Assembly (NCBI GenBank): GCA_023140775.1
Contig: JAGLLA010000012.1
Coordinates: 1 to 50,810, forward strand
Source: Candidatus Parcubacteria bacterium
GTDB taxonomy: Bacteria > Patescibacteriota > Minisyncoccia > JAHIHE01 > JAGLIN01
Length of the DNA: 50,810 nt
Direction of reading: 5' to 3'
The position numbers were made by a program, and so were the translations under genes. Positions 1,292 to 28,316 of this stretch are shown here, in pieces. Below the pieces are notes generated by a model, which did not search any database, had not been told where the DNA came from, and saw only the letters and a list, made by a program, of their open reading frames with translations. The stretch's first letter is position 1, and each line of letters begins with the position of its first letter.

Positions 1292-1831
1292 CTACTTCCC
1301 TTCACCAAATATCGAGATAAATTTCCCCTCTTTACCTACTTTCATCACCTCTTCTGGTGAAAAAACCCTACCATTCATACAAATATAGATACCAGGTTTT
1401 AAATCTTGTATTTTTGCGATTGAATAGCCAATACTAAATGGTCCATCAGAAGGACTAAAACCAACAAGAGGAATCATAGATCCCATAATAATTATAGTCT
1501 GATCTTTTCTTTTAAGATTTGCCTTCAGAAATCTAGCAGTGTCTGGCATGGTATATGTACCGTGAGTAATTATTATTTTCTTATTTGAACTTTTTTCAAC
1601 AGTAATTAAGATTTTTTTTAAGTCTGACTCAATAATATCTCTACTGTCTTTCATGCAAATATTTGTAAATTCAACAGGATTATATAATTTTAAACTTTTA
1701 ATAAAATTAGGTATTATTGATTTTTCATTTGGGACAGCCGTGTCTTTCGATGAGTCATAATAAGAATCAATTGTTCCTCCAGTTATTACAAAATGGATAG
1801 TTTTTTCTGACATAATACTTATATTAATCAA
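1292..1831 (-). CDS. Asparaginase/glutaminase-family domain protein (short, N-terminal domain only)
   Basis: IHFVITGGTIDS (TGGTI-type motif) and IIITHGTYTMPDTA (HGTDT-like motif), followed by IIIMGSMIPL. Confidence 0.7.
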   Translation of the reverse strand: MINISIMSEKTIHFVITGGTIDSYYDSSKDTAVPNEKSIIPNFIKSLKLYNPVEFTNICMKDSRDIIESDLKKILITVEKSSNKKIIITHGTYTMPDTARFLKANLKRKDQTIIIMGSMIPLVGFSPSDGPFSIGYSIAKIQDLKPGIYICMNGRVFSPEEVMKVGKEGKFISIFGEGK

Positions 1832-1849
1832 TTATTATATATATCCTAC

Positions 1850-1978
1850 CACAAAAATCACAAAAGTTCCAAAGTCCCTCAAGGGTTATAAAAATAACCG
1901 CTATAATTAGCGGATATTTTGTTTGTTCGGGTCCTGGGACAGCCTGCCCGCCTTCGGAGGGATGTTGGAACCTTTTTT
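1850..1978. repeat. Junction repeat, copy 2
   Basis: Left arm agttccaaag..ggttataaaaataaccgctataattagcggatattttgtttgttc is shared with copies 3 and 4. The GC-rich right arm gggtcctgggacagcctgcccgccttcggagggatgttggaacctttttt is identical to copy 3. On the (-) strand there is a CCGCTA/TAGCGG hairpin plus TTATTTTT (1890..1913) and a tgtggTAGGAT -10-like box before the ATG at 1831. Confidence 0.8.
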
Positions 1979-1989
1979 ATAAATAACAG

Positions 1990-2607
1990 CTAATTTATCA
2001 CTGGTCGAACTACAAATCTTCTTCTATTAATGCATACAAAAACTACAACCATATTTAATACAAAAAGAACTGCAAGATATGTGACGGTTAATAAATTATA
2101 TTCTGCATTTGAGATTATTGCCAAACAATCGACGATTGCCATTATAATCCAAAATGAAAGTGTTTCACTCCAGGGATTTTTTAAAGACTTTCTAATCGTA
2201 GGAATATAACCCGCACCATCAATTGCTGAAACCATTAACAGGGCGAGTAGCGGATTTTCTAGTTGCCACCAAATTACAATGGCAAGCAATGCTAACGCAA
2301 GAACAATTTTATCAGTAATGGTTATATCCCTGGTTCCATATTTAAATGAAAGTAAAAATATAACGAATACAAGAATAGTCCCAATAATCAAACTGATGCT
2401 TCCAAATTTACCACCTCCATATAACAAAGCGACGGTAGCTGTTCCTTGGGTAATCACCCAGATTAACCAAGTATACAAATGAGGTTTCGTTTTTTTTGCA
2501 AAAATATCTCTGAAATATGGAATAAAACCAATAATAGTAAGCGAGGCTGCAACGATTGCAATAATGAGCTTATAATCCATACTCTTTATAATTAAAATAA
2601 TTATCAA
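1990..2607 (-). CDS. Polytopic membrane protein, unknown family (likely true start at the Met at 2580)
   Basis: About 6-7 hydrophobic helices (LIIAIVAASLTIIGFIPYF, LIWVITQGTATVALLY, ISLIIGTILVFVIFLL...). No family recognised. Confidence 0.55.
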   Translation of the reverse strand: MIIILIIKSMDYKLIIAIVAASLTIIGFIPYFRDIFAKKTKPHLYTWLIWVITQGTATVALLYGGGKFGSISLIIGTILVFVIFLLSFKYGTRDITITDKIVLALALLAIVIWWQLENPLLALLMVSAIDGAGYIPTIRKSLKNPWSETLSFWIIMAIVDCLAIISNAEYNLLTVTYLAVLFVLNMVVVFVCINRRRFVVRPVIN

Positions 2608-2659
2608 CTAAAAACTTTTTCAAAATTCTATTTATTATTCTATTATATCTATATCTTAA

Positions 2660-2787
2660 CACAGACAATAAGAAGTTCCAAAGCTTCTCAATGGTTATAA
2701 AAATAACCACTATAAATAGCGGATATTTTGTTTGTTCGGGTCCTGGGACAGCCTGCCCGCCTTCGGAGGGATGTTGGAACCTTTTTT
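2660..2787. repeat. Junction repeat, copy 3
   Basis: Same architecture as copy 2. By eye, gcggatattttgtttgttcggg...ggaacctttttt is base-for-base identical to copy 2. Confidence 0.8.
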
Positions 2788-2799
2788 AAAAAATAAAGA

Positions 2800-3279
2800 C
2801 TATTTTTCCTTCAGTTCGCTTTCCCAACTTCTTAACAAATCCAATATCTTATTCTCAAATTTAGGCAAATACTCAATTTCAATTTGTCGATTATTTTCTT
2901 TATTGACTTGAATGATATCTGTCGCTCCTTCGTAAAATCCTTTTTCAATCATTTCGCTGGTTTTTCTACAGCCAAATACGATTCTCTTAATCCCAGACCA
3001 ATTTGCTACACTAAAACACATTAGACATGGTTGTAAAGAAGCATATAAAGTCGCACCAGTTAAATCTGCTGTTTGTGATTTTCTAGATGCCTCTCTTATA
3101 GAAGTTGTTTCAGCATGACCGGTAGGATCATTGAGCTTAGAGCCCAAGCTAACACCCTTAGCAATAATTTTTCTATTTTGAACTATAACAGAACCTGCGG
3201 GAAAACCGCCTTGCTCAACAGATTTTTTAGCCTGTTCAAGTGCTAACTCCAAAAATTGTTCGTCTTCTGATAAAAACAT
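2800..3279 (-). CDS. CMP/dCMP-type zinc deaminase (nucleoside, guanine or tRNA-adenosine deaminase-like)
   Basis: Zinc-ligand motifs GHAETTSIREA (HAE) and LQPCLMCFSV (PCxxC) at canonical spacing. Confidence 0.8.
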   Translation of the reverse strand: MFLSEDEQFLELALEQAKKSVEQGGFPAGSVIVQNRKIIAKGVSLGSKLNDPTGHAETTSIREASRKSQTADLTGATLYASLQPCLMCFSVANWSGIKRIVFGCRKTSEMIEKGFYEGATDIIQVNKENNRQIEIEYLPKFENKILDLLRSWESELKEK

Positions 3280-3611: not shown

Positions 3612-4442
3612 TTATCTGTTTTTTAATTTAAAACAATTAAATTTCGTAACAATTGTAGTTCTACTCTTCTCACTATAAAGCAGGCCTAAAGATATTTCTT
3701 TTTCATTATTATAATATAAATTATCATTTACTTGGAATATATAAGGATTTTTTCTTGCAGTAGCTTGTCCGCTATTTTTATTTTCTTCAGGATAATATCT
3801 AAAATTTAAAGAAATATTTACAACATTCGAATTATTCATCATGCTTTGAATAATCTCAATTTCAACAGGTTCATCGAACCTAATCCTATTCGCTAATTCT
3901 ATTGGCCCAACAAAATCACTATTCGCTTCTGATATAAAATTATCTCCTTGCTTTAAATAAAAATGAGTATTATTTCCATCTCCTAAAATTATTTTATAAG
4001 AATTTCCGATATAAACAACAAAATTTATTTCCTTTTTTTCATTTAAAATTGGTACAAAATTAACGACCATATGAAAATTATTGGTTGTCTTTTGATTAAA
4101 TGTCATTTTTGGCCCCCAATCATTTTCAGGATTATAAGCAAAGACTTGACTATCTCTTTTCCACCAATCATCGATAGTCCACTTCTCAATATTAAGAAAA
4201 TCACTATCGCACTCTTTTGATTCTACATTTTTTTCTATTTCATTAGATTTATTTATTTCAACATGCGATTCTTTACTAATATTATCGTTTATATTTATTA
4301 AAATTTGATAAAATGCTCCAGCTTTAAAAATAATTGCCATAAAAGCAAAGATAGTCAGGCCTATAAGTAGATACCTATAAAAAGCATTATTTTCAAATTT
4401 TTCTAATGTCTTATTTTTTTTCTTTTTATTCTTATTCATCAA
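3612..4442 (-). CDS. Hypothetical membrane-anchored protein
   Basis: Long ORF with a basic N-terminus and one TM helix (YLLIGLTIFAFMAIIFKAGAF). It overlaps the upstream ORF by 11 nt (operon-like). Confidence 0.5.
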   Translation of the reverse strand: MMNKNKKKKNKTLEKFENNAFYRYLLIGLTIFAFMAIIFKAGAFYQILININDNISKESHVEINKSNEIEKNVESKECDSDFLNIEKWTIDDWWKRDSQVFAYNPENDWGPKMTFNQKTTNNFHMVVNFVPILNEKKEINFVVYIGNSYKIILGDGNNTHFYLKQGDNFISEANSDFVGPIELANRIRFDEPVEIEIIQSMMNNSNVVNISLNFRYYPEENKNSGQATARKNPYIFQVNDNLYYNNEKEISLGLLYSEKSRTTIVTKFNCFKLKNR

Positions 4443-21102: not shown

Positions 21103-24100
21103 TTATTTGATTCTGTAGTTTTTTTTTACCAGATTTTGCAATCTGTTATCTAATGTTTCTATTGGATCATCTCCGATATTAAAGCGATTTATTCGCAAAA
21201 ATTTATAACCGTACCCTTCCAAAACTTTTTGCCTATAAATATCATCTTCTTTCATATAATATTTATAATTAGATTCATTCACTTCTTCTCTGTTAACAAA
21301 ATGCTCCTTGAATCCATCATATTCTATGACAATTTTTAATCCGTTGAAAATTAACAAAAAATCAACTTTATAATTTGGATGGTTATAATCCTTGTTTAAT
21401 TGTTTTAAGTATTTTCCAAGATCAAATTGCGGAATAAATTCAATTTTGTCTTTATTTTCTTTATAAAACTTTGTATTATGAAAAATTTCATCAACTTTAT
21501 ATTCCATTTTTGAATCAAGTTTTTTGGTGATTCTTTTCTTACCAATTTTTAATTCATTTTGGTAATGTAACATTGCATTTTTTATTTCTCCTTGAAAGTC
21601 TTCTATTGGTTTGCTTAATACAAAATGGATACATTCCTTAGCACGACTAAATCCGACATTCATTCTTTGAGACCTAAGTGTTCCATCTATTTCGTCGCTG
21701 ATTGAAGAAAAGTCTTTTAAGAATATCCAATTCAAACGATCTTTTTCTTTTGTTGCAACCATTGAATAAAAAATATAGTCCCTTTCTTCCCCCTGACAGG
21801 TATCAAAAGTCATTATTTTTAATTTACACTTTCCAAAAAGCCAATCTCTTTCTGGCAATTCGTTAATTTTATCAAAAAGTAGAGTTACTTGTTCTCTATG
21901 TGGAGTAATAATACCAAGACTTTGTTCAATCTCTTTTTCTTTAAATTCTTGAAGCTGTTTAATTATATGCTTTGCCTCAATTTCATTTGTATTTTTATTT
22001 TCATCAAATTTTCCGTCATGATCTATGACTTCAATTTTAATTACATCTTCAATCTGATTTCCTCTAATCTTCATACACTGAAGAGTATTGTCATAAAAAT
22101 ACTTATCAGAATAAGAAATAATTTCTGGATAACATCGGAAATGTTTTTTTAGTTGGCATTCATAATTTCTGATAAATCTTGAAAATTTAAGAATAGAATT
22201 TTTAATATCAAAATTTTCTTTTACTTTTGTGAGCCAACCATTTTTATCTAGTCCGTTAAGTCTTTCCTCTAAAAAAGTATCTTGTACTCTTTTTCTTAAC
22301 TCTTGATTTGTTACCTTGCTTGCATTATTTGCTTTCACATTTGAAAATTGCTTGTCATCTCCCAACACTATTATCTGTTTCCCTCGCACAAGTGCAGGCA
22401 ACGCCTGTGCAATACTAACTTGCGAAGCCTCGTCAATTATAATCAAATCAAATAGATTTTTCTCTAACGGAATAAATTCTGCATAATCCCTAATTCCTGC
22501 TAAAATACAAGGAAATGCCTTTTTCAAATTTTTAAAGAGGTCTTTCGGAAATTTTTGTTTTCTTCTTACAATATTTTTTAATGTATTTACTTCGCCAGCA
22601 CAATCATTGGTATATTCAATAATTCTTTTATCTAAGAAATATGTCATTCGTGCAGTCGTCAAGTCTTCAATCCCATTTATTGAATTAGAAAATCTGTCTT
22701 CTGGATAAGAGTTAAATTGCTTTTCAAGTTTTGATTGTAGGATTTTATGCTTTGAATATTCTTCAATTTCTTCATTTGTGTAGTCGGACAAAATGCTGGA
22801 CGATTTGTTTATATTCTTTGTCGATATATTTAGATTAATTTTCTCTGAAAAATCAGGATGATTCTCTTTTATGTTTAGAATAAAATCAACTTCGCTCTTT
22901 AATGTTCGCATTTTTTCGACTATCTTGATAAGTTTGTTTAAAGATTTACTTATGTCGTCTGAGAAAAACACACTACAATTTTCATTATTGTCTATTCTTA
23001 TATCACCTGGAATGATGTCTGATAATTTATTAACTACACAATCTATATTATTTATTTGCTTGAATACTTCTATATTCCAACTAACTTGCTGAATTTCATA
23101 CTCTAGATCACTTACATCAACGAGTGATGATTCTAATGTTTCAATCAATTCTTTTTCAGTTACAATATTCTTTTGTAGTTTTTTAATTTTTTGGTAATTA
23201 GACAGATACTCGTTGTTATCATTGCCTAACAAATCTATTAACACTCTAAAAATTGAATACATAGAATCTTCTTTTTCTTTGTATTCATTTGGAATTTTTT
23301 CATAAACAAAATCAAACAAATCAAAAACTTGCTGTATGTCTTTAATAAAATTTTGAGGACTTTCTATTCCAAAATAACTAAAGGTTTTTTTTAAATTTCG
23401 AGTAGCTTTTTCAACTTCCTTGTTTTTAAATAAGAATCCTATAATTGGTAACTTTATTGCATTCAAATTATCAACATATGTTTTAAGTTCTTCGATTGCT
23501 TTTTCAGAGTTTATATTTTTTGGAATCTCAAAATTAGAAAAAATATCGTAGTTATCAAATTTCTCTCCTAAAAATTTCTTTGATTCAGAAAATAGATTAA
23601 AAGATATATCTACAATTTCTGAACGCCACATCAAAACCCCGAGATCCAATTCTTTTGTTGGCTTGAATAATTTTGAAATTACAGGATTGTCTTTATATAG
23701 AATACTCAATTCAGATAATGTTGTTTGTATAGAACTTAAAGAATAAAGTATTTTTTCATCATATGGATTATGACTATCAAATCCTTCAATCAGAGCACCT
23801 GTATTAACATCATTATTTTTTTCTTCAAAATTTGTTTTTGACTCACTTAGAGTGTTTAATGAGTTTTGATATTCATTCAAAAGCTCATAGTTTGTGTCAG
23901 TTAATAATTTTCTATCAATTTTTAAATTACTATCATGTTTGCAAAGATTCTGAATTCCTTTTTTGATTCTCAATAAATCAATGTCATGTTCTTCTGGGGA
24001 ATTAAACCAATCAATGACTGAAAATTTATCAAGATTTTGAAAATAAAATTCAATATCTTTAATATCTATTCCCTCAAAATAATTTATATTTTCTTTTATA

Positions 24101-25839
24101 TTTTTTTCTAACTCACAAAGTGAATTTTTTCTAAGTTCATCATATTCACCCTTTTTATACTTGTAAGCACTATAATGTTCTTTAATTTTTTGAATAGTTT
24201 GACCTTGAACAATTTTATAAAATTTATTTCCTGTTTTTCCAAGTCTTAAAATAGGATTTTGAAAATCATCCTCATGTCTTATTTTGTTCAATGTGCCAGA
24301 AATTTTTTCTTCAACAACATCAAGAGCTTCTTTTTTATCTGATAAAACAAGAACAGACTTTTCTTCTAATAATGCTTTGCAAATAATCGCTGTAATTGTA
24401 TGACTTTTTCCTGTTCCTGGTGGCCCTTCTAGTATCATAAAATTACAATCTGGTTTTTGCAGAGCCATTAAAACTTTTTTTTGTTCATCATTAAGAGGAA
24501 TTGGACTTTCAAATATAAGTTTTTGAGAAATGTCTTTTTCATACCACTCATCTTCAACTTCTTCCATGAAAGGCTTTGGGTTTTCTTCAATAAAGCCATT
24601 TAATAAAGAAGTAAAGTTTTCGAGAATATTTCCGTCATCATTCAATATTTCTTCATAATCGTTAATTAGTGCTTCGTCTGACTTATCAAACAAAAATAAA
24701 TAACCTCTGTTAGAAAATGATGCTATAAGATTCATTCCTTTCTGAAATTCAGAATTTCCTAAATCTACATTTTTATTTAATTCAAAAAAGTTCTCTATTT
24801 TTCTAACATAATTTTTTAAAACGGAAGAAAAATCATCTTCTCCGTTTACGTATAAGATTCTGTCAAATTCTCCAGCTAGTGTTGATTTCTTTTCTGTTTG
24901 TAAATTGAATTCTTGCACAACAAAATCAATAGCCTTTGTATTCACAAAAACACGCTTCTCAAACTGAAAAACAAATCTATCCTCTTTCTTAATAATTGTT
25001 ATTGGTATGTAAAAAACAGGAAATTTTTCATTACCCATGGAAAGTTCATAAAAATATAGATATACTTCTGTTTTATCTATCAATTTATTATTTCTGTACA
25101 ATTGATAAATGTCAAAAAAAGCATCTCCGATAACAAAACTTTCAAAAAACTTGATGAGATTGTTTTTAATCTCAATTAGTTTAATAGTCTCCTGCAAGTT
25201 TTGTTTTGAATCAAAACCTTTTTTGTCTTGAAAAAAGTTTTGTAAGACTTCTGTATATTTATTTTCAAATATAGCAAAAATAGAATCAACAATGTCTGTT
25301 TCTAGTTGAAACTTGCTATTTTCATCGGCTATATCTAAATTTTCAAGTGGCTTGTCAAGGTCATCTAACAATGAAATAATTAAATTTCTTGAGAAAATAT
25401 TTTTTGTTTCTTCCTTGGACTCTTCTAAAAACTTATCATACTCCTTTGCGTACAAAACCCTTTTTTCTTCAATCATGTTTTCAATTTTATTGAAAACTTT
25501 ATCAAGGTCTTTTTCTGTAAGTTTCTTAATTCTCACCTCAATTAAATTAAAAAGGTTTTTAGGAACATTATTTACATATTCACCCTTTTTAATTTGCAAA
25601 CTTTCTTTTTTGAAACCGCTGTTCAAAAGTGCGAAAAAAGTTTTTTTAAGTTTTGGATATTTTTCAAGATCAATCCCGACTTTCAGCCCCTTTTGAGTCT
25701 TTTGAATAGCATTTCTTTTTGGGATTCTTCGCTTCTTAAAATCAGTTTCCAGAAAATTCATAAAATACTTAGCAACTTCTTTCACGAAAGAAGTTGTTTC
25801 AATATTTTCTGATTTTATAATTTCCTTTATTTTTGACAT
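21103..25839 (-). CDS. Giant SF1 (Upf1/Dna2-like) helicase with a DUF4011-like N-terminus and a Vsr/DUF559-like endonuclease C-terminus; Hhe-like defence candidate
   Basis: Walker A ILEGPPGTGKSHT; motif II LIIIDEASQV, VLGDDKQF; TFDTCQGEERDYIFYSMV; C-terminus VDFLLIFNGLKIVIEYDGFKEHF...YRQKVLEGYGYKFLRINRF. About 650 aa are inserted between motifs I and II. Confidence 0.85.
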   Translation of the reverse strand: MSKIKEIIKSENIETTSFVKEVAKYFMNFLETDFKKRRIPKRNAIQKTQKGLKVGIDLEKYPKLKKTFFALLNSGFKKESLQIKKGEYVNNVPKNLFNLIEVRIKKLTEKDLDKVFNKIENMIEEKRVLYAKEYDKFLEESKEETKNIFSRNLIISLLDDLDKPLENLDIADENSKFQLETDIVDSIFAIFENKYTEVLQNFFQDKKGFDSKQNLQETIKLIEIKNNLIKFFESFVIGDAFFDIYQLYRNNKLIDKTEVYLYFYELSMGNEKFPVFYIPITIIKKEDRFVFQFEKRVFVNTKAIDFVVQEFNLQTEKKSTLAGEFDRILYVNGEDDFSSVLKNYVRKIENFFELNKNVDLGNSEFQKGMNLIASFSNRGYLFLFDKSDEALINDYEEILNDDGNILENFTSLLNGFIEENPKPFMEEVEDEWYEKDISQKLIFESPIPLNDEQKKVLMALQKPDCNFMILEGPPGTGKSHTITAIICKALLEEKSVLVLSDKKEALDVVEEKISGTLNKIRHEDDFQNPILRLGKTGNKFYKIVQGQTIQKIKEHYSAYKYKKGEYDELRKNSLCELEKNIKENINYFEGIDIKDIEFYFQNLDKFSVIDWFNSPEEHDIDLLRIKKGIQNLCKHDSNLKIDRKLLTDTNYELLNEYQNSLNTLSESKTNFEEKNNDVNTGALIEGFDSHNPYDEKILYSLSSIQTTLSELSILYKDNPVISKLFKPTKELDLGVLMWRSEIVDISFNLFSESKKFLGEKFDNYDIFSNFEIPKNINSEKAIEELKTYVDNLNAIKLPIIGFLFKNKEVEKATRNLKKTFSYFGIESPQNFIKDIQQVFDLFDFVYEKIPNEYKEKEDSMYSIFRVLIDLLGNDNNEYLSNYQKIKKLQKNIVTEKELIETLESSLVDVSDLEYEIQQVSWNIEVFKQINNIDCVVNKLSDIIPGDIRIDNNENCSVFFSDDISKSLNKLIKIVEKMRTLKSEVDFILNIKENHPDFSEKINLNISTKNINKSSSILSDYTNEEIEEYSKHKILQSKLEKQFNSYPEDRFSNSINGIEDLTTARMTYFLDKRIIEYTNDCAGEVNTLKNIVRRKQKFPKDLFKNLKKAFPCILAGIRDYAEFIPLEKNLFDLIIIDEASQVSIAQALPALVRGKQIIVLGDDKQFSNVKANNASKVTNQELRKRVQDTFLEERLNGLDKNGWLTKVKENFDIKNSILKFSRFIRNYECQLKKHFRCYPEIISYSDKYFYDNTLQCMKIRGNQIEDVIKIEVIDHDGKFDENKNTNEIEAKHIIKQLQEFKEKEIEQSLGIITPHREQVTLLFDKINELPERDWLFGKCKLKIMTFDTCQGEERDYIFYSMVATKEKDRLNWIFLKDFSSISDEIDGTLRSQRMNVGFSRAKECIHFVLSKPIEDFQGEIKNAMLHYQNELKIGKKRITKKLDSKMEYKVDEIFHNTKFYKENKDKIEFIPQFDLGKYLKQLNKDYNHPNYKVDFLLIFNGLKIVIEYDGFKEHFVNREEVNESNYKYYMKEDDIYRQKVLEGYGYKFLRINRFNIGDDPIETLDNRLQNLVKKNYRIK

Positions 25840-26041
25840 ATTTTTTATTTAACCCCGTTCATTTATATACAAACAAATACGCCTGAAACATTTTAAAATC
25901 ACATAGGGCGTACCTATAACCTATATTACCCTTAAAAAGAGAATTAGTAAAGAAAATGAGAAAATTACACAACAAAAAAACACTTCCTAAAAAGCGCTTT
26001 TTTATAGGTGTCTCGGTCGCGAAACACCTCTCACATGACTG

Positions 26042-26112
26042 TTCGGGGACAGGGATTCGAACCCCGATTGCCTGGACCAAAACCAGGTGTCCTACCATTA
26101 GACTATCCCCGA
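26042..26112 (-). tRNA. tRNA-Gln (anticodon UUG)
   Basis: TCGGGGA TA GTCT AATGGTA GGAC A CCTGG TTTTGGT CCAGG CAAT CGGGG TTCGAAT CCCTG TCCCCGA A folds as a cloverleaf by hand. It has a U1:A72 pair, a 7-nt anticodon loop with TTG at 34-36, and no encoded CCA. Confidence 0.9.
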
Positions 26113-26358
26113 ATATTTATTTAATATTTGCCTTTTTTCATCTCTGCCAATGCCAGATTTCAAATATTTTTCACGTTTCAATGATTCTTCTCTTGATCTA
26201 TATTTTTCTTTATATATTATTTTTAATGGATACCTGCCTTTAGTTGACTTAACTTTTCCAGATTGATGTTCTTTGATTCTTCTCGTTAAATTTTCAGTTT
26301 GACCAACATAACTCCACGCTTTTTTTGTTTCAGAAATTAATATATAAACATAAAACAT
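26098..26358 (-). CDS. Small GIY-YIG nuclease family protein
   Basis: FYVYILIS (GIY), WSYVGQT (YIG), LTRRIKEH (Arg/Glu core). The last five codons and the TAA stop lie inside tRNA positions 1-15. Confidence 0.8.
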   Translation of the reverse strand: MFYVYILISETKKAWSYVGQTENLTRRIKEHQSGKVKSTKGRYPLKIIYKEKYRSREESLKREKYLKSGIGRDEKRQILNKYSGIV

Positions 26359-26429
26359 AGTTTTATTTTTGATATTGTCTATATTTCATCTTAAACTGCA
26401 TTTCTTCATCGCCTGGACTCTTGTCTGCC

Positions 26430-26496
26430 GGTAGGCATAAAAACCAGTTGTCCCTCCAGAGGCGGACAGGCCTACCATTGGACTATCCCCGAATAT
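26430..26496 (-). repeat. Displaced copy of the tRNA-Gln 5' part plus a nested hairpin and T5
   Basis: 26471-26496 (cctaccattggactatccccgaatat) matches 26091-26116 at 25/26 positions. GGTAGGC/GCCTACC (26470-26476 / 26430-26436) encloses an inner GC-rich hairpin and is followed by TTTTT on the minus strand. Confidence 0.75.
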
Positions 26497-26576
26497 AAAA
26501 TTTTACAAATACTTCGACAAGCTCAGGATAACACTTCCAACAGGCTTGATACTAACTACGAAATACTTAATACTAA

Positions 26577-28316
26577 TCATACCACTTCTCCACCGAACAT
26601 TTCCAAAGCCGAATCCATCAGATCGTCACTACTACTGCTCTTTTTCTTTTTTGATCCTAAAGGCATATGATCTTCAATATCATAACCCATACTTTTCGCT
26701 TCATCGTGAGAGATAAACTTGACTAAAACTTCAGTTTCAAAAATTTCTTTCATCACATTTTCAACAATCGTTTTGTTTTCAAATTTGTTTAATTTATCTT
26801 TGTGAAAAGAATATTCACATGAAATCAAAATTTCATTGCCGATAACTGCCACAGGCAAGCACGTTTTCAAGAATGCCGTCAATGAATGATTGTGAGGCTT
26901 AACATCTTCTAATATATCACACCATTCATCTTTGACAAGCTCCAAGCCAATACTGCTTTCTGTGTCAGTGTTTTCCTCTGCTTTTTCACCTTCTGATTCT
27001 GCAATTTTTTCTGCCTTTACTGACTCGGTATTTTTCTCCTCAGCCTCTTCGCTTTTGTTGACGATTGCGTCTCTGATGATAGACTCCCCTTCTTCGATGC
27101 TCTTCTTGATGAAATCTCCTGATTGTTTCACTGATTTTGAAACTTGTTCTGTAATCTTCTTGATCGGCTTGACGATTTTTCTATTATAGTCGTTTTTATT
27201 GTCACTTGTCAATGGTCTTTCATTTTCATCTTCAATAGTAATTTGAGCAATCGCTAATTCAAGTGGAAGCTGAGGAATGATCGCAGATCTAATTCCCTCT
27301 TTTGCCTTAATAAATTCGCGAATAATTTTTACGACTTGCGACAATTTTGCGCCAGAAGAAAGAGTTTTTATTTTTTCAATTTGTTCTTCTGTCATTTCTG
27401 ATGAAAAATGCTTTTCCATTTCTGGACTGATCTTGATCAGCAATAATTTTCTGGCAAACTCAATGATCGAAATTGTAAATTGCTCAATATCATATCCATT
27501 TTCAGTTGTTTCATCTATATATTTAATCGCCTCAGAATATTTTCCTTCCAAAATCAAACTCACCATTTGTATTGAAATTGAAATATCAGCCACAGAAAGA
27601 ATCTCTTGAACATCTTCAAGAGTAATCTTGTCTCCACCAACAGAAAGAATCTGTCCAAAAAGACTTTCACTGTCCCTCATTCCACCATTGGCATTGATTG
27701 CTATAAAGTCTAGAGCTTCTTTGGAAACTTTCACTTTTTCCTTTTCGGCAATTTCAGCGAGACAATTCGTGATTTCAGAAACTTTCAACCTTCTGAAATC
27801 AAACCTTTGACATCTTGAAATTATCGTTGCTGGAATTTTATGTATTTCAGTTGTCGCTAGGATAAAAACGACATGACTCGGTGGCTCTTCCAGTGTTTTC
27901 AAAAGAGCATTAAAAGCTCCTTTGGAAAGCATGTGAATTTCATCAATAATATAAACTTTATATTTTCCAAGTGAAGGAGTAAAATTTATTCTATCGATAA
28001 TGTCTCTCATCTTATCCACTTGGGTGTGGGTCGCAGCATCGATTTCGACCATATCCAAAAACTGATTTTGATTGATACTTTGACAGATCTCACACTGATT
28101 GCAAGGATTTGAGTCTTTTGGATCTTGGCAATTTATGACTTTGGCAAGTATTCTGGCAATTGTAGTTTTGCCAATTCCTCTTGAACCAGAAAATAAATAA
28201 GCATGCGCGACTTTGTCGTTCTTGATTGAATTCTTGATAGTCTTGATGACATGCTGTTGACCCACGACATCATCAAAATTAAGTGGTCTATATTTTCGAT
28301 ACAAAACTTCACTCAT
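26577..28316 (-). CDS. dnaX: DNA polymerase III subunit gamma/tau
   Basis: YRPLNFDDVVGQ, Walker A GSRGIGKTT, zinc module CNQCEIC, YIIDEIHMLS, SRCQRFDF. Confidence 0.9.
   Translation of the reverse strand: MSEVLYRKYRPLNFDDVVGQQHVIKTIKNSIKNDKVAHAYLFSGSRGIGKTTIARILAKVINCQDPKDSNPCNQCEICQSINQNQFLDMVEIDAATHTQVDKMRDIIDRINFTPSLGKYKVYIIDEIHMLSKGAFNALLKTLEEPPSHVVFILATTEIHKIPATIISRCQRFDFRRLKVSEITNCLAEIAEKEKVKVSKEALDFIAINANGGMRDSESLFGQILSVGGDKITLEDVQEILSVADISISIQMVSLILEGKYSEAIKYIDETTENGYDIEQFTISIIEFARKLLLIKISPEMEKHFSSEMTEEQIEKIKTLSSGAKLSQVVKIIREFIKAKEGIRSAIIPQLPLELAIAQITIEDENERPLTSDNKNDYNRKIVKPIKKITEQVSKSVKQSGDFIKKSIEEGESIIRDAIVNKSEEAEEKNTESVKAEKIAESEGEKAEENTDTESSIGLELVKDEWCDILEDVKPHNHSLTAFLKTCLPVAVIGNEILISCEYSFHKDKLNKFENKTIVENVMKEIFETEVLVKFISHDEAKSMGYDIEDHMPLGSKKKKSSSSDDLMDSALEMFGGEVV

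Follow-up and report, generated by a model that had tools for sequence, protein, structure and literature searches.

Introduction

Genomic islands that land at tRNA genes depend on an integrase, bring kilobases of cargo and leave the 3' part of the gene duplicated in the form of a short att core. A different association is found in T4-like phages, in which the intron-less GIY-YIG genes of the Seg family lie among tRNA genes (e.g., SegB in the T4 tRNA gene cluster) and are thought to spread by break repair with co-conversion of their flanks; Seg proteins are 200 amino acids (aa) or more in length, carry DNA-binding domains and belong to the I-TevI/UvrC lineage, and their genes are accompanied by neither a target duplication nor a palindrome. 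Small mobile palindromes that tolerate insertion into genes are represented by the Rickettsia palindromic elements, the GC clusters of yeast mitochondria and the PstI palindromes that flank tRNA genes in Neurospora. In fungal mitochondria, mobile endonuclease open reading frames (mORFs) bring along a copy of the gene part that they displace, as in atp6 of Allomyces macrogynus and in atp6, atp9, cox2 and nad3 of Glomus (PMC3630166), and a further report concerns coding palindromes in mitochondria (PMC6649704). In the classification of Dunin-Horkawicz et al., prokaryotic Slx1-like GIY-YIG proteins are putative repair proteins passed on vertically, and the selfish GIY-YIG enzymes belong to the other (UvrC+) lineage (PMC1564403). 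Here we describe a 50,810-nt stretch of Candidatus Parcubacteria DNA (the window) in which the gene for an 86-aa GIY-YIG nuclease lies between a broken and an intact copy of tRNA-Gln. Comparison with related loci makes it very likely that this arrangement belongs to a class of selfish cassettes that exploit tRNA genes through a duplication that preserves their function. With moderate confidence, we further read the window as holding an old copy of such a cassette, ~0.3 kb in size and composed of a minimal Slx1/UPF0213-type nuclease gene inside a tandem partial tRNA duplication.

Results

Filled and empty tRNA-Gln loci next to dnaX

All features of the tRNA-Gln/GIY-YIG locus lie on the minus strand. 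In reading direction, dnaX (26577-28316, a 579-aa ORF whose product is 100% identical to P0121, a Candidatus Parcubacteria DNA polymerase III subunit gamma/tau) is followed by a dead copy of tRNA-Gln, the nuclease ORF and an intact tRNA-Gln(UUG). With dnaX as upstream synteny anchor, the corresponding position was located in three relatives (L158, L159-161 and L162-163) that share the efp...dnaX gene order and whose DnaX proteins are 85, 81 and 77% identical to that of the window. In all three, which provide the uninterrupted loci with which comparison had been proposed in the initial annotation of this DNA, dnaX is followed by one uninterrupted tRNA-Gln(UUG), and both the GIY-YIG gene and the tRNA fragment are absent from the site. 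The intact tRNA-Gln of the window is 96-99% identical to that of the empty-site L158 and L159. The spacer in front of the dead copy (gtatttgtaaaattttatat|tcgggg) matches the native 5' flank in L159 (ggatttgtaaaatttaatat|tcgggg), and the 3' flank of the intact tRNA (25989-26040), composed of a hairpin (GGTGTTTCGCGACCGAGACACC) and an A/T-rich tail, is nearly identical to that of the uninterrupted tRNA-Gln in L162; no terminator was called at 25989-26040 by a simple terminator scan. Because both flanks match those of the empty relatives, the window locus amounts to the native dnaX-tRNA-Gln arrangement enlarged by ~380 nt: upstream now stand the native promoter region and, as the dead copy, roughly the first two-thirds of tRNA-Gln, and the complete tRNA-Gln downstream keeps the native 3' flank. 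Another Parcubacteria metagenome-assembled genome (MAG), L001, carries a fresher cassette at the same position. The block is therefore an insertion-type polymorphism that some genomes have and others lack. An empty site would likewise result if the repeats recombined and removed the block precisely, and the relatives would fit either gain or loss.

The intact tRNA-Gln(UUG) at 26041-26112 (Rfam tRNA model 66.1 bits, E 5e-14) is the sole tRNA found by ARAGORN in the 50.8-kb window. Its first 22 nt and 4 upstream nt (26091-26116) recur 380 nt away, at 26471-26496, as a 26-nt direct repeat with 96% identity (25/26). This repeat had been noted initially, and the accompanying description of the downstream copy as part of an intact tRNA and of the upstream copy as dead also holds, the latter being called by neither ARAGORN nor Rfam. 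The repeats had been thought to enclose only the 86-aa GIY-YIG ORF and a leader of ~110 nt. The ORF is intact (26098-26358; Pfam PF01541, E 4.7e-14), but its last five codons (S-G-I-V-stop) are at the same time tRNA nt 1-15, with the stop codon in the D-loop, and the leader was found to hold two further colinear tRNA pieces (to ~nt 46) and two GC-rich inserts. Read along the minus strand, the upstream repeat copy (4 flank nt and tRNA-Gln nt 1-22) is followed by an 18-nt GC-rich insert (CCTGTCCGCCTCTGGAGG; 26453-26470), a degenerate hairpin after the D-arm of the dead copy, and by a piece that matches tRNA linear nt 22-34 at 12/13 positions (26440-26452) and spans the 3' side of the D-stem, the 5' side of the anticodon stem and the first two anticodon bases. 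A 20-nt block between anticodon bases 2 and 3 (26420-26439) is the relic of a palindrome, termed PAL here (CCTGCCTGCCGGCAGGCAGG; 15/20), and is succeeded by a piece that matches tRNA linear nt 35-46 at 10/12 positions (26408-26419) and by an AT-rich leader of 49 nt without tRNA similarity (26359-26407), after which the ATG follows. Local alignment of the tRNA with the 450 nt upstream of the ORF scored 47, compared to 24 for the best of 100 shuffles (z = 13.8). The region upstream of the ORF thus reads as a decayed tRNA plus inserts.

This score, together with the same layout in dozens of further loci, refutes a chance repeat. An att-site remnant of an integrase-mediated island can be dismissed as well: tRNA genes are classic integration sites and the gene content downstream of tRNA-Gln is variable, but the repeats bracket only a 260-nt ORF for an 86-aa protein and no integrase, and it is the 5' part of the tRNA that is duplicated, whereas integrases duplicate the 3' part. 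A group I intron in the anticodon loop was rejected on the basis that no Rfam intron model matched (E up to 10), that a complete tRNA lies downstream and that the leader shows no excess structure. A ribozyme or other known RNA in the leader was also rejected, with no Rfam match in 26359-26496 (E up to 10) and a folding z score of +0.48 over these 138 nt.

A consensus scan identified a promoter-like site (TTGTCG-17-TATATT, 26492-26520) that now precedes the dead copy. Its spacer, tttgtaaaattt(t/a)atat|tcgggg, is also found 5' of the uninterrupted tRNA-Gln in L159, and the site is probably the native tRNA-Gln promoter. A second site, predicted by consensus scan only (TTGGCA-16-AATATT, 26123-26150), lies in the 3' end of the ORF in front of the intact tRNA. 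The D-loop TAA serves as the nuclease stop codon in the window (26098-26112) and likewise in L001, L003-L008, L011, L016 and L033-L035. RNase P cleavage at the tRNA 5' end could leave such a nuclease mRNA without a stop codon, in which case each precursor would yield either a tRNA or a message, and this may possibly act as a brake on nuclease expression.

The flanks of tRNA-Gln are mosaic among the relatives. At the nucleotide level, L158 dnaX is 82% identical to that of the window, yet its tRNA 3' flank is shared with L001 (L001 4242-4374 and L158 4778-4910 are 90% identical over 133 nt, dnaX only 69%); the window (25985-26112) and L162 (3713-3862) share the 3' flank, with dnaX at 75%. These patterns suggest recombination breakpoints at the tRNA. 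Further downstream the DNA differs among relatives, with a helicase in the window, a type I restriction-modification system in L162 (4003-6677) and a serine recombinase in the L169 lineage (1758-3254). The window helicase (21103-25839, minus strand) is a 1578-aa Upf1-like SF1 protein (AAA_11/AAA_12; PADLOC PDC-S37/MkoA/Hhe-like), and tRNA-Gln appears to mark the edge of a variable, defense-island-like region.

Cassettes at other tRNA genes

A scan of one genome per species, which used an alignment of the closest relatives as query and is biased towards relatives of the window protein, yielded 37 loci. Their hosts are Patescibacteria, MAGs labeled Gammaproteobacteria, Acidobacteriota, Bacteroidota, Ignavibacteriales, Planctomycetota, Elusimicrobia and Verrucomicrobia. 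ARAGORN detected a same-strand tRNA within ~110 nt of the ORF at 34 of the 37 loci, which bears out the expectation that a search of relatives would reveal GIY-YIG ORFs abutting tRNA genes; in L018 and L037 the 5' part of a tRNA is visible that is cut by the contig end or truncated. A partial tRNA copy with z >= 10 against shuffles was present in 25 loci. In 20 of these, the ORF is immediately preceded by the partial copy and immediately followed by the intact tRNA, which often overlaps the stop codon of the ORF, and the remaining five (L009, L014, L026, L027 and L029) are mirror images with the intact copy upstream and the partial copy downstream. The initial proposal of a selfish element is thus largely supported, by the presence/absence polymorphism in the three syntenic relatives and by this link to tRNA genes, with its mechanism left to conjecture.

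The tRNAs hit in the genome loci are Gln (UUG, CUG), Arg (four anticodons), Cys, Pro, Ala, Ser and a Thr-Tyr-Trp cluster, to which metagenome and viral contigs add Asn, Ser(GGA), Lys, Arg(UCG) and Arg(CCU). Further cases comprise L081 (Asn), L087 (Ser), L110 (Lys), L131 (Arg), L164 (Arg-CCT), L169 (Gln) and the viral contig L208. One protein family is therefore found at at least 10 tRNA identities, with a patchy distribution over phyla. The same cassette clades occur in MAGs recorded as "uncultured Gammaproteobacteria" (L004-L006, L008, L010 and L020) and in Patescibacteria MAGs; either the elements cross phyla or the Gammaproteobacteria record names are unreliable. No relatives of the Gln clade were found among the viral contigs, one of which (L208) holds a cassette of another clade.

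Fresh copies duplicate nearly the whole tRNA (L001 nt 0-64, 65/65; L007 to nt 63, 65/66; L016 to nt 69; L011, 59/59) and are 98-100% identical apart from one inserted hairpin; between clades, the length of the duplication ranges from ~30 to 112 nt. By this comparison, the 26-nt repeat of the window is the best-preserved remnant of a longer duplication. It had been taken initially as a sign that the element targets the D-arm region, which is not upheld: the duplication reaches ~nt 46 in the window and nt 63-69 in L001, L007 and L016, and since the break of the dead copy at the D-arm is a later palindromic insertion, the 26-nt repeat gives no indication of D-arm targeting. In the window, PAL is reduced to 15/20, the second hairpin is decayed, the three segments derived from the tRNA together have four substitutions and the dead copy has lost its 3' part, with the ORF intact. 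This copy of the cassette looks old. Elsewhere, frameshifted or truncated ORFs were found in L019, L029, L032 and L034-L037, which resemble the decay series typical of selfish elements. Nested arrays (L006, L003, L087 and L032) were considered as proof of re-invasion and rejected, as unequal crossing-over can equally produce them. Recent spread to several sites was not seen, with identical proteins (P0079 on 24 contigs, P0007 on 12 contigs) always in one locus type.

GC-rich palindromes in the dead tRNA copies

PAL is a perfect GC-rich palindrome that splits the dead copy between anticodon bases 2 and 3 in every Gln-type cassette and is intact at this position in L001-L008, L034 and L169. The window relic is the best PAL-like site in the 50.8 kb (next best 13/20), and neither other PAL copies with up to 3 mismatches nor CCGCC..GGCGG hairpins were detected in the window. 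Dead copies of other clades carry other GC-rich hairpins (TCCGCC-N3-GGCGGA, GTCGCCGCGGCGAC, CCCGCC-N3-4-GGCGGG and ACCGCGTTCAACGCGGT) in the D-loop, in the T-loop, or at the anticodon arm or in its place, and GC-rich palindromes were present in every cassette, with one always in the dead copy. Hairpins of the TCCGCC-N-GGCGGA type, found in comparable places in L005, L014, L016, L021 and L029, are similar to the 18-nt insert of the window, which, with no perfect stem of >= 5 bp left, represents a decayed hairpin. Covariation of hairpin type with nuclease clade would have pointed to a partnership of protein and hairpin. Palindrome type does not strictly track nuclease clade, the CCTGCC palindrome being shared by five different protein clusters, and in the remaining cases clade is confounded with host and tRNA type. 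A sub-clade located after tRNA-Tyr in a Thr-Tyr-Thr-Trp cluster (L010, L012, L015, L017 and L020) is flanked on both sides by ACCGCGTTCAACGCGGT, which in L010, L012 and L020 is followed by a conserved, possibly structured sequence of ~150 nt (...cctggaNaa(t)tccaggtgggta...aacagggtc).

PAL was also found in more than 120 metagenome contigs (a lower bound; L038-L157) and in 35 viral contigs (L177-L211). These contigs range in GC content from 0.29 to 0.71 and have unrelated flanks, and some hold several copies (four in L097, at least 6 in one IMG/VR contig). In its distribution, PAL behaves like a free-living mini-element. A GIY-YIG gene adjoins ~1/12 of PAL occurrences. Insertions into dead tRNA copies are clean, adding exactly 20 nt without target duplication. 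In conserved genes, PAL occurs in frame and is read as LPAGRQ (ATP synthase alpha in L076, SecA-like in L119, P-type ATPase in L130 and PheS-like in L046); when L076 is compared with the two solved bacterial ATP synthase alpha structures whose alignments were inspected, the palindrome accounts for 7 extra residues (21 nt) immediately behind the P-loop region. The in-frame copies recall the Rickettsia palindromic elements. A preference for the apex of pre-existing hairpins was rejected, as flank pairing of >= 5 bp was found at 2.5% of 121 sites versus 2.1% in shuffles. In the viral L201 (2239-2330) and L178, PAL occupies the variable-loop position of a phage tRNA-Met that ARAGORN still calls as a 92-nt tRNA, and it may be tolerated there as a long variable arm.

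The hairpin GTCGCCGCGGCGAC (L022-L026, L018, L019 and L031) has a CCGCGG center and the CCTGCC palindrome a GCCGGC center. We take the recognition site of the restriction enzyme Eco29kI to be the same as that of Cfr42I, CCGCGG. Cfr42I is a GIY-YIG restriction enzyme that cuts CCGCGG (PMC2241918), and Eco29kI is another GIY-YIG restriction enzyme (PMC1952068). The match between the hairpin center and the Cfr42I site may be coincidence.

The position of the palindrome bears on a Campbell-type integration, in which a small circle carrying the ORF and a palindrome-broken tRNA fragment would recombine with the chromosomal tRNA on the 5' side of the palindrome, leaving a dead copy upstream and a restored copy downstream; excision would regenerate the circle and an empty site. 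A truncated copy, an ORF and a full copy are the exact product of such a single crossover, the empty sites are scar-free, and in the Gln clade the palindrome is always in the truncated copy. Nevertheless, the ~350-bp circle would have no replication or transfer function, donor-type sequence is predicted in parts of both copies and not seen, and mirror-image loci (L014, L026 and L029) would need a different circle, all of which makes this route very improbable.

A minimal Slx1/UPF0213-type nuclease

An exact copy of the window nuclease is annotated in Candidatus Parcubacteria (P0001). The PF01541 match covers residues 1-68 with 52.9 bits against a cut-off of 22.6, and all residues that are invariant across 31 relatives (Y5, Y17, G19, R27, H31 and E63), the catalytic ones included, are kept. 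No domain beyond GIY-YIG was identified in the 86 aa by Pfam or NCBIfam, the catalytic domain occupying residues 1 to ~75, and both databases returned none of the DNA-binding modules seen in I-TevI and Seg (NUMOD, helix-turn-helix, zinc finger). The NCBIfam model for group I intron endonucleases (TIGR01453) reached 18.5 bits, with a cut-off of 56. In the alignment of 31 sequences there is no invariant C-terminal Asn after E63. Relatives are typically 77-90 aa long and likewise consist of the minimal domain without auxiliary domains.

The family profile matched UPF0213 proteins best (1zg2, E 9.6e-13; 1ywl, 1.5e-12), followed by SLX1 (1e-6 to 1e-4). An AlphaFold2 model with a mean per-residue confidence (pLDDT) of 92.4 has the secondary-structure order E-E-H-E-H-H. 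Its best Foldseek hits were 1zg2 and Slx1 6seh (template-modeling score TMq 0.68, root-mean-square deviation 2.1 A), and I-TevI and UvrC domains fitted poorly (TM 0.44-0.46, E above 0.6). Judged by profiles and model, the window nuclease is a minimal Slx1/UPF0213-type GIY-YIG domain and not an I-TevI-type homing enzyme. The family comprises 5,502 clusters at 50% identity (E up to 1e-3), or 370 at E up to 1e-10. In many of its representatives, translation of tRNA or palindrome sequence has produced an N-terminal "extension" (e.g., ...GSNP... and WRNLPAGRLVDA), which indicates that the arrangement reaches well beyond the 37 loci.

Origin of the second tRNA copy

At each locus the two tRNA copies are 92-100% identical, and both are host-specific in the acceptor and anticodon stems. 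The acceptor stem reads TCGGGGA in the window, L158 and L159, TCCCGGG in L005, TCCCAGA in L008 and TCCGGGG in L011, and GGGGATAGTC, common to the window, L158 and L159, is host-specific as well. Between loci, identity of the ORFs is no more than 50-70%. Given host-specific copies beside diverging ORFs, the duplicate looks derived from the resident gene or homogenized with it, not imported. In L021-L023, L030, L031 and L081, the duplication additionally extends 12-55 nt into upstream sequence that is specific to each locus, so that an extended -10-like motif is duplicated too (~55 nt in L021, ~30 nt in L022, ~14 nt in L031 and ~12 nt in L081). In Acidobacteria, as in L081, the upstream flank common to both copies is host-specific. 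Host-type copies would fit spread only among near-identical genomes, homogenization by gene conversion, or an insertion that duplicates resident sequence. One Verrucomicrobia MAG provides a different picture, with a 309-nt block present at two loci (L035 and L037) at 98.4% identity. A leader piece of 30 nt, an ORF with a frameshift and nt 1 to ~41 of tRNA-Ser make up the block, and unrelated DNA follows the copy at the second locus, which is how an element that carries the 5' part of a tRNA would be expected to look. The initial suggestion of a carried replacement 5' segment accordingly stays unproven: the ORF and tRNA 5' part behave as a unit in L035/L037, and both copies are host-specific in every locus.

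These data bear directly on a transposition-like insertion with a long target-site duplication, in which the nuclease would make staggered cuts, one close to the tRNA 5' end and one within the tRNA, a short ORF-only element would be joined in, fill-in would duplicate 30-110 nt of resident sequence, and the palindrome would be added at or soon after insertion. Such a process would account for two copies that are host-specific and often identical while the ORFs differ by 30-50% between loci, for duplicated flank that is specific to each locus (L021, L022, L031 and L081), and for leader plus ORF being the only sequence common to related cassettes. To our knowledge, no nuclease-only element inserts with a long target-site duplication. 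The variation in duplication length between clades, the joint movement of ORF and tRNA 5' part in L035/L037 and the fact that identical proteins are never found at several loci also count against it, and we consider it unlikely.

Selection on the cassette

The Acidobacteria L024 and L025 share a cassette at one locus, and their ORFs differ at 17% of synonymous sites (dS 0.20) with a ratio of nonsynonymous to synonymous rates (dN/dS) of 0.13; for the window and L001 this ratio is 0.35. The nuclease ORF is under purifying selection. In the same L024/L025 pair (3919-3960), the 5' segment of the dead copy (25 nt) and the hairpin GTCGCCGCGGCGAC (14 nt) show 0/39 changes, a count from one pair only, in contrast to 4/42 in the 3' segment of the dead copy and 4/38 in the upstream spacer. 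This difference implies that part of the "dead" copy is constrained or converted.

A host-retained nuclease that is not currently mobile would also come under such selection. Here, an Slx1-like structure-specific enzyme would be kept by tRNA genes for their strong promoters or for processing of palindromes and hairpins (e.g., mobilizing or counteracting PAL), and the tRNA duplications would be by-products of unequal crossing-over and palindrome insertions. In agreement with this, dN/dS is low where the locus is shared by vertical descent, each protein keeps to one stable locus, structure-specific Slx1 nucleases are the nearest structural matches, every cassette contains GC-rich palindromes, tandem arrays (L006, L032 and L087) look as unequal crossing-over would leave them, and the dead-copy 5' part and hairpin are unchanged compared to ~10% changes in neighboring non-coding DNA. 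However, the gene is absent in 3/3 close relatives of the window, the distribution over phyla and at least 10 tRNA identities is patchy, pseudogenized copies are frequent and PAL type does not track protein clade. Taken jointly, retention by the host and by-product duplications appear rather improbable.

Discussion

How a selfish tRNA cassette could spread

Homing by break repair is a tentative candidate for the way in which the cassette spreads, one to which we give somewhat less than even chances. The cassette would be transcribed from the tRNA promoter (TTGTCG-17-TATATT) through the dead copy, and, in members of the population whose chromosome has no cassette, the nuclease would break the same tRNA gene in its uninterrupted form. 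A chromosome with the cassette would serve as repair template, the flanks and the tRNA segments to both sides of the ORF acting as homology arms, so that the ORF would be copied in and one tRNA copy left whole, a net process that would amount to intron-less homing with target duplication. The palindrome would split the direct repeats into pieces too short for efficient deletion, which would reduce loss by repeat recombination, and it would probably also make the dead copy a poor substrate for the nuclease. The "homing-like" label given initially is unproven, with a filled/empty polymorphism at a conserved site on the one hand and a protein that is only a catalytic domain of the Slx1/UPF0213 branch on the other.

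Several points weigh against a selfish cassette that spreads in this way. As the intact tRNA downstream does not differ from the presumed target, it should be cut too, and recognition of one tRNA gene by an 86-aa protein without a DNA-binding domain is unexplained, its cleavage activity being putative. Identical proteins on many contigs occupy a single locus type, and host-specific copies with duplicated flank would not be predicted by simple import of a foreign segment. Purifying selection in the vertically shared locus of L024/L025 would also be expected of a gene useful to the host. Lastly, prokaryotic Slx1-like proteins have been regarded as vertically inherited repair enzymes (PMC1564403).

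One speculative way for a nuclease without its own DNA-binding domain to find a tRNA gene is that the dead tRNA copy and its conserved hairpin form a working targeting module. Either as RNA or as extruded DNA, the 5' segment derived from the tRNA would base-pair with its cognate gene, and the Slx1-like enzyme would use the palindromic hairpin as a handle, to be bound or cut. Duplication of part of the host tRNA gene at each landing site would reprogram the specificity; dispersed solo 20-nt palindromes would then be non-autonomous passengers of the same enzyme. A palindrome in every dead copy, the identity of the dead copy with the host tRNA, the 0/39 changes in L024/L025 and the occurrence of one family at so many tRNA identities are what such a module would be expected to show. 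We nonetheless rate it as improbable.

Implications

If this class of selfish tRNA cassettes is real, it would add to bacterial genomes a very small (~300 nt) and, with 5,502 clusters, very widespread selfish element that exploits tRNA genes without an intron or an integrase and keeps an essential gene alive by partial tandem duplication. Part of the "prokaryotic Slx1-like repair protein" family would move to mobile DNA, and MAG annotations would owe to such cassettes many of their partial tRNA genes and many spurious "GIY-YIG" proteins with extended N-termini. The cassettes would also be tied to PAL, whose 20 nt are the same in different phyla and in phages and can lie in frame in ATP synthase, SecA and other core genes; PAL needs an explanation of its own. 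Finally, target choice of the 86-aa nuclease may be set by adjacent nucleic acid and not by protein domains, an idea that can be tested directly. No description of the bacterial tRNA/GIY-YIG/tRNA sandwich, of the 20-mer or of the LPAGRQ insertions was found in the searchable full-text literature, which leaves out most subscription journals, so that an earlier description is possible.

Comparison with known systems

Integrase islands share with the cassette the use of a tRNA gene as landing site and the preservation of its function by partial duplication. PAL resembles the small mobile palindromes in being GC-rich and perfect, dispersed in unrelated contexts and sometimes in frame in essential genes. 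Its own features are a length of only 20 nt, identity over a GC range of 0.29-0.71 and in phage contigs, clean insertions and a regular association with GIY-YIG cassettes.

With respect to the nuclease, the stand-alone Slx1-like proteins of the UPF0213 (YhbQ) type (1zg2 and 1ywl) are the best sequence and structure matches and have the same minimal domain, without auxiliary domains and without a conserved C-terminal Asn. A systematic tie to tRNA genes, duplications or palindromes is not reported for the Slx1-like group in PMC1564403. As for a homing endonuclease, filled (window, L001) and empty (L158, L159-161 and L162-163) versions of one site exist at dnaX-tRNA-Gln. In its logic the cassette also resembles the free-standing Seg endonucleases of the T4 tRNA region. 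In contrast to Seg proteins, the window protein has no DNA-binding module and matches I-TevI weakly (TM 0.44).

The closest analogue of the tRNA/GIY-YIG cassette is the fungal mitochondrial mORF. Both have an intron-less endonuclease ORF (GIY-YIG in atp9) within a gene, one functional and one displaced part, and presence/absence among close genomes (PMC3630166); in the window these parts are the intact tRNA (26041-26112) and the dead copy (26408-26496), with the ORF between them. As initially proposed, the tRNA stays functional, the intact downstream copy keeping the locus working by the same logic as in the mitochondrial elements (PMC3630166). The mORFs differ in that an organellar protein gene is the target, that its 3' end is supplied and that the supplied piece is foreign (63% identity to the native one) (PMC3630166), whereas the cassette uses a bacterial tRNA gene, duplicates its 5' part in host-type, near-identical copies (92-100%), always has the palindrome in the dead copy and encodes an 86-aa Slx1-type enzyme. 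Membership in the mORF or Seg families therefore fails on defining points (a supplied segment that is not foreign, no DNA-binding module, and an enzyme of the Slx1 rather than the I-TevI lineage).

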